Source: a virus
Lineage: Duplodnaviria; Heunggongvirae; Uroviricota; Caudoviricetes; Peduoviridae
IMG/VR virus record: IMGVR_UViG_2541047727_000009
Length of the DNA: 31,660 bases
Strand: one strand, 5' to 3'
Below are positions 21,940-24,264 of the stretch, piece after piece (within the stretch, counting starts at the first letter, position 1; the number at the start of each line of letters is the position of its first letter). The notes below the pieces were generated by a model. That model had not been told where the DNA came from and searched no databases. It saw nothing but the letters and a program-made list of their open reading frames with translations. The translations under genes and the position numbers were made by a program.

Positions 21940-22533
21940 AAGCACGTCTGACGCATGCAAAAAAATGCATCTTTTGTATGCAATGCAGAAATCAAACAAA
22001 TTTGAGTATAAATTAACGATGAGCCCTATGATTTTTAACTTCATCCCTAGCAGTTAACAGCAAATTAAAAGTCTTTATCTGCCTGATACTGCCCTGAACA
22101 GTAGTAACAACGATACTCAACATCACCATCATCCATTGGCCAAATGCTCATTTCGCTGCTGGGAGCCTGCGCACCACAACAATCGCAAGCAACATCAATA
22201 TCATCACTATCTTCATTCTGACAAAAAGTGCATTTGTAACCCGTAGAAGACTCATCAGAGGGAATCATTGTGTCGTTAGAACACTCAGGACATTCATAAA
22301 CTTTCCAATCGACCAATTCATAAAATTTATGCCTAACCCCATAAAAAGCTTCAGCCTCTCTTTCTTCAACTTCTTTCTTGGCTTCAGAGAGCCTATGAGA
22401 GTATTCATCAGCTAAAGTTTGAAATATCTGTAAGTTATCTGCACCGACTTCATCTTCAAGATTAAAAAGATCGAAGATATCAATAAACTCAGCTACCCCC
22501 CGGACTAGGCGTCCAATACACAAGCGCGCGTCT

Positions 22534-22537
22534 TTAG
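22534..22537. repeat. IS5 target-site duplication TTAG (left copy; right copy at 23733-23736)
   Basis: Identical 4-bp TTAG directly flanks both IS5 termini; fits the IS5 YTAR target preference. Confidence 0.7.
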
Positions 22538-23732
22538 GGAAGGTGCGAATAAGCGGGGAAATTCTTCTCGGCTGACTCAGTCATTTCATTTCTTCATGTT
22601 TGAGCCGATTTTTTCTCCCGTAAATGCCTTGAATCAGCCTATTTAGACCGTTTCTTCGCCATTTAAGGCGTTATCCCCAGTTTTTAGTGAGATCTCTCCC
22701 ACTGACGTATCATTTGGTCCGCCCGAAACAGGTTGGCCAGCGTGAATAACATCGCCAGTTGGTTATCGTTTTTCAGCAACCCCTTGTATCTGGCTTTCAC
22801 GAAGCCGAACTGTCGCTTGATGATGCGAAATGGGTGCTCCACCTTGGCCCGGATGCTGGCTTTCATGGATTCGATGTTGATGGCCGTTTTGTTCTTGCGT
22901 GGATGCTGTTTCAAGGTTCTTACCTTGCCGGGGCGCTCGGCGATCAGCCAGTCCACATCCACCTCGGCCAGCTCCTCGCGCTGTGGCGCCCCTTGGTAGC
23001 CGGCATCGGCTGAGACAAATTGCTCCTCTCCATGCAGCAGATTACCCAGCTGATTGAGGTCATGCTCGTTGGCCGCGGTGGTGACCAGGCTGTGGGTCAG
23101 GCCACTCTTGGCATCGACACCAATGTGGGCCTTCATGCCAAAGTGCCACTGATTGCCTTTCTTGGTCTGATGCATCTCCGGATCGCGTTGCTGCTCTTTG
23201 TTCTTGGTCGAGCTGGGTGCCTCAATGATGGTGGCATCGACCAAGGTGCCTTGAGTCATCATGACGCCTGCTTCGGCCAGCCAGCGATTGATGGTCTTGA
23301 ACAATTGGCGGGCCAGTTGATGCTGCTCCAGCAGGTGGCGGAAATTCATGATGGTGGTGCGGTCAGGCAAGGCGCTATCCAGGGATAACCGGGCAAACAG
23401 ACGCATGGAGGCGATTTCGTACAGAGCATCTTCCATCGCGCCATCGCTCAGGTTGTACCAATGCTGCATGCAGTGAATGCGTAGCATGGTTTCCAGCGGA
23501 TAAGGTCGCCGGCCATTACCAGCCTTGGGGTAAAACGGCTCGATGACTTCCACCATGTTTTGCCATGGCAGAATCTGCTCCATGCGGGACAAGAAAATCT
23601 CTTTTCTGGTCTGACGGCGCTTACTGCTGAATTCACTGTCGGCGAAGGTAAGTTGATGACTCATGATGAACCCTGTTCCATGGCTCCAGATGACAAACAT
23701 GATCTCATATCAGGGACTTGTTCGCACCTTCC
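22538..23732 (-). mobile_element. complete IS5 insertion sequence (1195 bp)
   Basis: Terminal inverted repeats GGAAGGTGCGAATAAG (22538-22553) and the reverse complement of GGAAGGTGCGAACAAG (23717-23732); encodes an InsH-type transposase; length 1195 bp matches IS5. Confidence 0.9.
22684..23664 (-). CDS. insH: IS5 transposase InsH, 326 aa
   Basis: Product [35 protein letters not shown]... recognised as IS5 InsH; ATG at 23664. Confidence 0.9.
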
Positions 23733-24264
23733 TTAGGAGTAAGTCTGAATTGATAATGCTCAATATCATTTCTTAAATTCTTTATCCAAGCTATATCATT
23801 ACAAAAATCAATATCTACAAAATCAACCCCAGTTATGCCACATTTCTCACACTTAGCAAAGTTTAGTGCCTGATCTAAGGTTATCGTATATGGCCTAGAT
23901 TTCCCTTCAATGAACCTTCCTAAATCAACGCCATCCTCGATAATTTTATTATATGCGTCTAAAAGACTGATTGATTCTCGCTTTGCTCTTGTAGCTATTT
24001 GTTTATAGCAATCGGAATACAGTAAATTTTCATCTACTGTAACAATATATAACTTCAACACCAGCTCAAGAAAATGTGACAAATGCAAGATAGCAAATTT
24101 ATATTGCCGCAATTCTCCTCTCTGCCCTAACTCATACTTTGCTAAAGCTTCATTAAAACTATCAATAGCATTCTCTTGTAAATCCAGTTGATATTCCATT
24201 ACATCACCTAAAAATTTCATATTTATATGAGTGCAGAAAACCATTCAGCACTCATTGCTTATAA

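Follow-up and report, generated by a model that had tools for sequence, protein, structure and literature searches.

An IS5-interrupted gene in the cos-proximal hotspot of a P2-like prophage probably encodes a single-protein HEPN-zinc-ribbon defence RNase

The DNA analysed here, IMG/VR record IMGVR_UViG_2541047727_000009 (Peduoviridae; 31,660 nt, in the following called the window), comprises nearly all of a P2-like prophage. Its minus strand carries, at 22065-24199, a gene for a 311-amino-acid (aa) protein with a predicted N-terminal HEPN domain and two C-terminal zinc ribbons, and this gene is split by a copy of the insertion sequence IS5. With a probability of about two in three we read it as a one-gene cargo ('moron') of the prophage which sits in the old/tin hotspot between genes Q and A and encodes a single-polypeptide defence RNase of the DUF3644/EC042_2821 HEPN-ribbon kind, inactive in this copy.

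The original prediction for this DNA, made from the letters alone, had noted the combination of a HEPN-like motif with cysteine clusters and had not recognised it as a named system. Comparison with catalogued families indicates that the combination is already known. It is listed as EC042_2821/DUF3644 with a zinc ribbon, the protein matches the PADLOC model PDC-S64, and the architecture recurs in HEC-08 (E. coli ECOR52, WP_150698383.1), which Payne et al. (2024, bioRxiv 10.1101/2024.01.29.577857) describe as a DUF3644 HEPN protein with C-terminal zinc fingers and a validated defence that is lost in the H128 motif mutant. What appears to be new is the strong acidity of the ribbon module and its fusion to PIN_8.

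A single gene split by IS5

Two open reading frames (ORFs) of 179 aa (23705-24244) and 152 aa (22065-22523) lie on the minus strand, and a transposase ORF of 338 aa (22684-23700) stands between them. The likely start of the 179-aa frame is the ATG at 24199, which agrees with most homologues and with the RefSeq call; the stop codon of the split gene is at 22065. Deletion in silico of the IS5 together with one TTAG leaves the 5' part in frame with 22537 and yields an open in-frame ORF of 311 aa. Hence 24199..22065 (minus strand) is one 936-bp gene whose halves are separated by the element. The parts are the following:

23737..24199, minus strand: 5' part, running through codon 154 into the first base of codon 155 (encodes HEPN helices 1-3, including the insert that separates helix 2 from helix 3)
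22065..22537, minus strand: 3' part, from the remainder of codon 155 through codon 311 and the stop (encodes HEPN helix 4, linker helix of ~40 residues, two zinc ribbons)
24204..24209, minus strand: AGGTGA, a Shine-Dalgarno-like sequence lying 4 nt upstream of the start codon (ATG, 24199)
22538..23732, minus strand: inserted IS5 of 1195 bp, bounded by terminal inverted repeats of 16 bp and containing the transposase ORF 22684-23700 (minus strand)
23733..23736, no strand: TTAG target-site duplication, right copy, direct repeat flanking IS5
22534..22537, no strand: TTAG target-site duplication, left copy, direct repeat flanking IS5

An uninterrupted version of the gene is found in E. coli GN04171 (WP_004099450.1, 311 aa, annotated as 'hypothetical protein'). 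It is identical to the reconstructed gene at 935 of 936 nt, the sole difference being synonymous. The GN04171 locus lacks the IS5 and is otherwise 99.9% identical to that of the window: a query of 4201 bp finds a match of 3002 bp, exactly 1199 bp shorter, which corresponds to an exact empty site. The original prediction that 22065-24199 can be reconstructed to a 311-aa protein is thereby confirmed with exact coordinates. In PHROGs, phrog_20824 covers the full-length family end to end (311/311 positions) and the two fragments form separate families. Every source naming the 311-aa protein annotates it as hypothetical.

A canonical IS5 measures ~1.2 kb, is bounded by terminal inverted repeats of 16 bp, duplicates a 4-bp YTAR target and encodes a DDE transposase. 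The element at 22538-23732 agrees with it in length (~1.2 kb), in the 16-bp inverted repeats, in the 4-bp duplication and in the 338-aa transposase ORF. At its two ends, GGAAGGTGCGAATAAG and GGAAGGTGCGAACAAG stand in inverted orientation; the terminal repeats read GGAAGGTGCGAA[T/C]AAG and match at 15 of 16 positions. We take it to be an IS5 on these hallmarks.

The insertion follows codon 154, seven codons past H148 and between HEPN helices 3 and 4. As the N-terminal fragment lacks helix 4 and everything downstream, the copy of the HEPN-zinc-ribbon gene in the window is almost certainly dead. The split allele itself was found via protein clusters in records of E. coli HVH 69 (EQP29210.1, WP_024189082.1), the N-terminal fragment (179 aa/164 aa) being identical to EQP29210.1/WP_024189081.1 and the TTG-started C-terminal fragment of 152 aa to WP_024189082.1, so that the window probably derives from HVH 69 or from a strain closely related to it; an exact search of IMG/VR for the IS5 junction returned no match. 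A second truncation is found in Escherichia sp. TW09308, where a near-identical allele (P0279, WP_202799032.1) is only 170 aa long and ends in ...RLVRGGS. The break at residue ~170 falls on the G-run encoding RGV, and we read it as a probable frameshift at this run. The independent truncations suggest a repeated inactivation of the gene.

The gene has a GC content of 33-41%, compared with 53% for the prophage. This allele occurs in one of 5426 complete E. coli genomes and a distant form in 23, and several hundred further contigs from draft assemblies carry the allele with the full-length 311-aa gene. In a promoter and terminator scan the promoter calls were no better than those in shuffled sequence.

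The N-terminal half is predicted to be a HEPN domain

HEPN domains are defined by a bundle of four helices, an insert separating helix 2 from helix 3, an Rx4-6H motif where helix 3 ends and, in helix 2, a conserved acidic residue that is typically part of E-x3-[KR]; within the motif a polar residue (N/D/H) follows the R (Anantharaman et al. 2013, PMC3710099). In the 311-aa protein, LRNDIEH forms residues 142-148 and both signatures are present:

23756..23773, minus strand: R143-N-D-I-E-H148, the HEPN R-x4-H motif, placed where predicted helix 3 ends (from conservation and model)
24053..24067, minus strand: the other HEPN signature, E45-x3-K49 (ELVLK), located in predicted helix 2 (from conservation and model)

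Since R-x4-H occurs in 22% of shuffles of the 311-aa sequence (R-[NDH]-x3-H in 4%), the motif taken alone is weak evidence. Its conservation lifts it above chance. Among 212 homologues of 240-380 aa with identities down to ~31%, H148 is conserved in 100%, R143 and N144 in 98% each, E45 in 98% and K49 in ~100%. The position in the predicted fold also fits. The originally noted N-terminal HEPN-like R-x4-H thus stands, and structure prediction, the check proposed with it, places a HEPN four-helix bundle around the motif.

All four defining features are found in the predicted single-chain model, whose residue numbers exceed those of the protein by 15. In model numbering, helix 2 extends over 47-70 and carries E60 and K64, the insert covers 72-130, helix 3 runs from 145 to 162, its final turn holding R158 and H163 following it directly, and helix 4 comprises 170-190; helix 3 hence stops one residue before the motif histidine. 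The bundle is followed by a helix of ~40 residues and then by six short strands holding the cysteine pairs. A Foldseek comparison of the model with PDB and BFVD found no global match, and LsoA and AbiV are lower-ranked entries in the list from the fold analysis. Based on the model, the N-terminal half is a HEPN domain, for which RNase activity is predicted by analogy with other members of the superfamily.

An acidic tandem zinc-ribbon module

The C-terminal part contains cysteines at positions 237/240, 257/260, 272/274/275 and 298/301, arranged as two ribbons:

22221..22292, minus strand: zinc ribbon 1, C237-x2-C240 ... C257-x2-C260, with the conserved stretch S-T-G-Y-x-C-x2-C-x-N-E-E-S (Cys 98-100% conserved)
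22098..22187, minus strand: zinc ribbon 2, C272-x2-C275 ... C298-x2-C301 (four Cys 94-98% conserved)

Both of the cysteine clusters originally described are present, and eight of the cysteines are conserved in 94-100% of the 212 homologues. The reading of the second cluster as C-x-CC needs correction: as C274 is kept in only 23%, this cluster is C-x2-C...C-x2-C and the module consists of two canonical four-Cys ribbons. At least four CxxC occur in 0.03% of shuffles of the 311-aa sequence. The region of ribbon 1 forms beta hairpins in the model, and Foldseek finds local matches only, of ~40 residues, to eL24 and small phage zinc-ribbon proteins.

The module has a net charge of -15 over 81 residues (family median -13 over ~76), and the ribbon region of HEC-08 one of -18. 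Such a charge is atypical of a nucleic-acid binder and therefore favours a sensory or regulatory role; of the two functions initially proposed for the ribbons, binding of nucleic acid or sensing, the former loses and the latter gains support. Moreover, the same ribbon module together with part of the preceding helix is fused to PIN_8 in Acinetobacter (44% identity over 102 aa, E 9e-21), with a net charge of -13 to -15 in the fusion. An RNase effector that is exchanged on a constant acidic module argues for a module that senses or regulates rather than binds substrate. With modest confidence, and from sequence features, we hence regard the ribbons as a putative sensor or regulator and not as a substrate binder.

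The PIN_8-ribbon proteins (P0255 and P0265) are 439-448 aa long with PIN_8 at the N terminus (E 4e-63) and are encoded at L073 4912-6240 and L074 4894-6240 of Acinetobacter junii and Acinetobacter sp. They have no PADLOC match, and the fusion may represent an uncatalogued sister defence architecture.

A more far-reaching and rather doubtful idea is that the acidic ribbons with the preceding helix serve as a portable infection sensor for varied RNases, namely HEPN here and in HEC-08 and PIN_8 in Acinetobacter. As a nucleic-acid mimic the module might then plug the RNA groove of the nuclease, or bait a basic DNA- or RNA-binding protein of the phage, and capture of the module by a phage protein would release the RNase. 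The accessible part of Payne et al. (2024) does not describe infection sensing for HEC-08.

Position in the prophage and contexts of homologues

The surroundings of the gene in the window are as follows:

18833-20635: terminase
20635-21669: portal (gene Q/gpQ)
21840..21858, minus strand: P2-type 19-nt cos GGCGAGGCGGGGAAAGCAC, exact match, 0 expected by chance, 206 bp beyond the stop of the HEPN gene
22065-24199, minus strand: HEPN gene
24265-25038, minus strand: 243/257-aa protein with two predicted N-terminal transmembrane (TM) helices, GC 38%, PHROG 3403 (function unknown)
between the TM gene and the DUF3850 gene: small ORF of ~68 aa
25426-25914, minus strand: DUF3850/ASCH-domain protein, immediately upstream of gpA
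25878-28205: replication endonuclease gpA (gene A)

The 19-nt sequence used to locate cos is that of P2. The exact cos lies within the window; the packaged genome ends are therefore spanned, and going inward from cos on this side one meets the HEPN gene first. Its position between gpA and gpQ and next to cos is that of the cos-proximal hotspot of P2, which holds old and tin in P2 itself and many validated defence systems in related prophages (Rousset et al. 2022, PMC9122126). The slot and the presumed role are hence those of old and tin, whose proteins are unrelated to the 311-aa protein. In ten loci from genomes and IMG/VR, homologues of 52-100% identity likewise adjoin P2-type portals. The DUF3850/ASCH gene and the ~68-aa ORF are both conserved among P2-like prophages that differ in their hotspot cargo; in E. 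coli MS7163 the slot (L002 3318-4100, minus strand) holds an unrelated hypothetical protein of 260 aa (WP_000864673.1), a further uncharacterised cargo of the hotspot.

Elsewhere, homologues are found in other mobile or defence-related surroundings. An E. coli homologue with ~50% protein identity (65% nt identity over 527 nt) is found both on a plasmid and within a tRNA-Ser island. In Klebsiella pneumoniae (L005 4303-6510) the start of a homologue with 71% identity lies 3 bp past a gene for a DtrJ-like membrane protein, and the homologue is followed by a PIN_12 gene and an Eco57I-type methylase; the surroundings are TraG/DtrJ-like and have the appearance of a conjugative element. A homologue from Roseateles adjoins Hachiman. 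Four locus groups (L057-L062, e.g. L057 830-8225) carry a homologue of 35-38% identity exactly between hmaA (SNF2 helicase) and hmaB (adenine methylase). They belong to metagenome-assembled genomes of Nitrosomonadales, Burkholderiales and Oxalobacteraceae, and this embedding is the arrangement that led to HEC-08.

Relation to PDC-S64, HEC-08 and DUF3644

The best match of the 311-aa protein in PADLOC-DB is PDC-S64 (E 3.6e-17, in three stretches). This model is matched by 46/46 aligned homologues (best E 5.8e-32), and a relative from L062 aligns to positions 44-267 of the 305-position PDC-S64 model (E 5e-6). Of the same 46 homologues, 16 match the DUF3644 model of PADLOC-DB and two match HEC-08 weakly (best E 5.5e-4); in Pfam, 21 match DUF3644 (PF12358) weakly (best E 2.1e-7) and a few match other HEPN families. 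An exhaustive profile search yielded 920 cluster representatives at E<=1e-3, 308 of them at <=1e-10, mostly from Gamma- and Betaproteobacteria; most are 250-310 aa long with the same two-part layout. Direct searches of Pfam, NCBIfam and PDB with the 311-aa sequence returned nothing significant. A tblastn search of 50,697 GenBank phage records gave no match, yet the family is present in prophage contigs of IMG/VR and in PHROG 20824. No paper came up when the literature was searched for 'PDC-S64' or for WP_004099450.

The link to HEC-08 (sequence taken from Table S2 of Payne et al.) appears to be a transitive one via the remote members P0245 and P0222. Both match PDC-S64, HEC-08 (9e-12 and 3e-10) and DUF3644 together. 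Their matches to the HEC-08 model span HEPN, linker and first ribbon, and P0222 scores 27.6 bits against PF12358, exactly the gathering cut-off (27.6 bits). The HEC-08 protein in turn matches the models HEC-08 (1e-173), DUF3644 (3e-71) and PDC-S64 (3e-8). When the family profile is aligned directly to the HEC-08 sequence, helices 1-2 alone align and the probability is low. In our reading of these matches the 311-aa protein probably belongs to the same HEPN-zinc-ribbon clade as HEC-08 and is closest to PDC-S64, with HEC-08 as a sister and not as the parent family.

The two proteins share the build of a single polypeptide in which an N-terminal DUF3644-type HEPN domain with E-x3-K and R-N-x3-H is followed by a helical linker and acidic C-terminal CxxC ribbons, and distant members of the 311-aa family are also embedded between hmaA and hmaB. 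They differ in length (366 aa for HEC-08, 311 here) and in that HEC-08 has four CxxC...CxxC units instead of two and lacks the helical insert of ~60 residues between helices 2 and 3. Moreover, the 311-aa protein has no match to the HEC-08 model, and its locus is the P2 hotspot whereas that of HEC-08 is an Hma system. PDC-S64 (models PDLC05059/PDLC05058) likewise consists of one candidate gene and is close in length (305-339 model positions), but the best-aligned stretches fall largely within the HEPN part of the model.

The EC042_2821 family overlaps DUF3644 (PF12358) and comprises HEPN domains with Rx4-6H fused to zinc ribbons in restriction-modification (R-M) operons (Anantharaman et al. 2013, PMC3710099). 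The 311-aa protein resembles it in the pairing of HEPN and zinc ribbons, and its homologues between the HmaA helicase and the HmaB methylase stand in R-M-like operons. It differs by falling below the detection of PF12358 and by lacking the winged helix-turn-helix and restriction endonuclease fusions of that family. HepT/HEPN-MNT toxins (e.g. SO_3166, PDB 5yep) differ in their setting, as neither an adjacent MNT antitoxin gene nor a conserved partner is found here, and HepT lacks the linker helix and the zinc ribbons. Ishtar (bioRxiv 10.64898/2026.07.06.735840) is alike in being monogenic, in an N-terminal HEPN domain with RN-x-[IL]-EH, in a C-terminal domain of unknown function and in its occurrence on mobile elements. 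Its C-terminal domain, however, is beta-rich and in the listed Ishtar homologues without Cys ribbons, and no homology extends past the motif (hhalign 22 columns, probability 1.8%). Identity with the Ishtar family had been raised by the mention of DUF3644 and by a homologue from A. baumannii, and was ruled out on sequence.

Alternative explanations

Several points weigh against the reading as a prophage-borne defence RNase. The 311-aa protein has neither a Pfam match (E<=0.1) nor a match to the HEC-08 hidden Markov model (PDLC04162, E<=1). PDC-S64 is itself a candidate-grade PADLOC model, of which the best stretch covers positions 3-87 of 339 in the 311-aa protein and 3-134 in relatives, i.e. 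the N-terminal part, so that full-length membership is unproven. The IS5-disrupted copy confers no phenotype on its host, and the independent truncation in TW09308 could point to a cost or to dispensability of the gene. Trigger, RNA target and oligomeric state are all inferred, and some HEPN domains are non-catalytic ligand binders. The latter leads to a different view of the protein, in which the HEPN domain would be a scaffold that binds ligands or proteins, like that of sacsin or those fused to nucleotidyltransferases, with a role in prophage regulation or otherwise outside defence. We consider this hardly probable: non-catalytic HEPN lineages typically lose R-x4-6-H (Anantharaman et al. 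2013, PMC3710099), whereas here R, N, H and the helix-2 Glu and Lys are 98-100% conserved, and the homologues embedded in Hma systems also argue against a non-catalytic, non-defence role. An artefactual reconstruction, with two unrelated ORFs around an insertion sequence and with R-x4-H and Cys pairs that arose by chance, draws on the 22% of shuffled sequences containing R-x4-H; it is refuted by the uninterrupted near-identical gene in E. coli GN04171 and hundreds of draft assemblies and by the 920 cluster representatives that match the profile, besides the end-to-end match of PHROG 20824, and is practically out of the question.

The remaining alternatives concern partner and target. The HEPN gene could be the toxin of a two-gene toxin-antitoxin or defence pair with the TM protein (24265-25038) as partner, in the manner of HEPN-MNT or of the TIR+TM system of the P2 hotspot. 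Both genes are co-oriented, 65 bp apart and low in GC, the TM gene stands beside the HEPN gene in nine of ten P2-context loci, and systems of an effector with a TM protein are known from P2 hotspots. Nevertheless the TM gene also stands beside unrelated cargo in numerous P2-like prophages of E. coli (it is present in the matching loci H2-H25); in H2, the single such locus inspected, the slot holds a 260-aa protein without similarity. Outside P2 contexts the HEPN-zinc-ribbon gene never has the TM neighbour, and across 87 loci in 63 groups no conserved partner gene was found, with no neighbour family in more than 6 of the 63. The TM protein itself has no match to Pfam, PADLOC, MNT, antitoxin or defence models and may be an independent hotspot gene. 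A two-gene system is thus quite improbable, and the HEPN-zinc-ribbon gene is best read as a stand-alone system, since it lacks a recurrent neighbour and the TM gene is common to P2 prophages with other cargo. Finally, the main target might be other mobile elements (conjugative plasmids, satellites or rival P2-like phages), possibly by cleavage of replication RNA as proposed for Ishtar. Ishtar comprises monogenic HEPN (DUF4145 or DUF3644) proteins causing loss of RP4; the 71%-identical Klebsiella homologue lies amid TraG/DtrJ-like conjugation genes, another homologue lies in an island with RepL, and P2 hotspot systems are able to exclude other P2-like phages. However, only the RN-x-[IL]-EH stretch is common to Ishtar and the 311-aa family, Ishtar has no Cys ribbons, and HEC-08, the closest validated architecture, was scored on phages. 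We regard this as unlikely, albeit it differs from the reading as an anti-phage RNase in target and not in mechanism.

Proposed mode of action and implications

HEPN proteins of the RNase type are metal-independent, and two subunits together make up their composite active site (Anantharaman et al. 2013, PMC3710099). On the reading as a single-gene defence RNase, the effector would consist of the N-terminal HEPN ribonuclease domain, the long linker helix and the C-terminal tandem four-Cys ribbons. If it works as HEC-08 and other defence nucleases of the HEPN type do, the protein would be kept inactive in uninfected lysogens. The acidic ribbon module would act as the sensor or autoinhibitory part rather than as a nucleic-acid clamp. 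Upon infection by a competing phage, two HEPN domains might come together to form a composite R/H active site and cut RNA, whereby phage multiplication would be stopped.

For this genome the finding means that a putative defence cargo of the prophage has been knocked out by IS5. The intact allele could be used for testing, with R143, H148, E45 and the eight cysteines as ready mutational targets. Taken together, the single-gene HEPN-zinc-ribbon defences would gain a fairly large uncharacterised subfamily, which rides in the P2 old/tin hotspot as well as within Hma systems. If the idea of a portable sensor were true, it would represent a new class of sensor common to several single-gene defence families. 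The practical value of the finding is modest; its chief point is the acidic ribbon module common to HEPN and PIN effectors, which may offer a testable handle, through its HEPN and PIN_8 fusions, on how minimal defence proteins sense infection.

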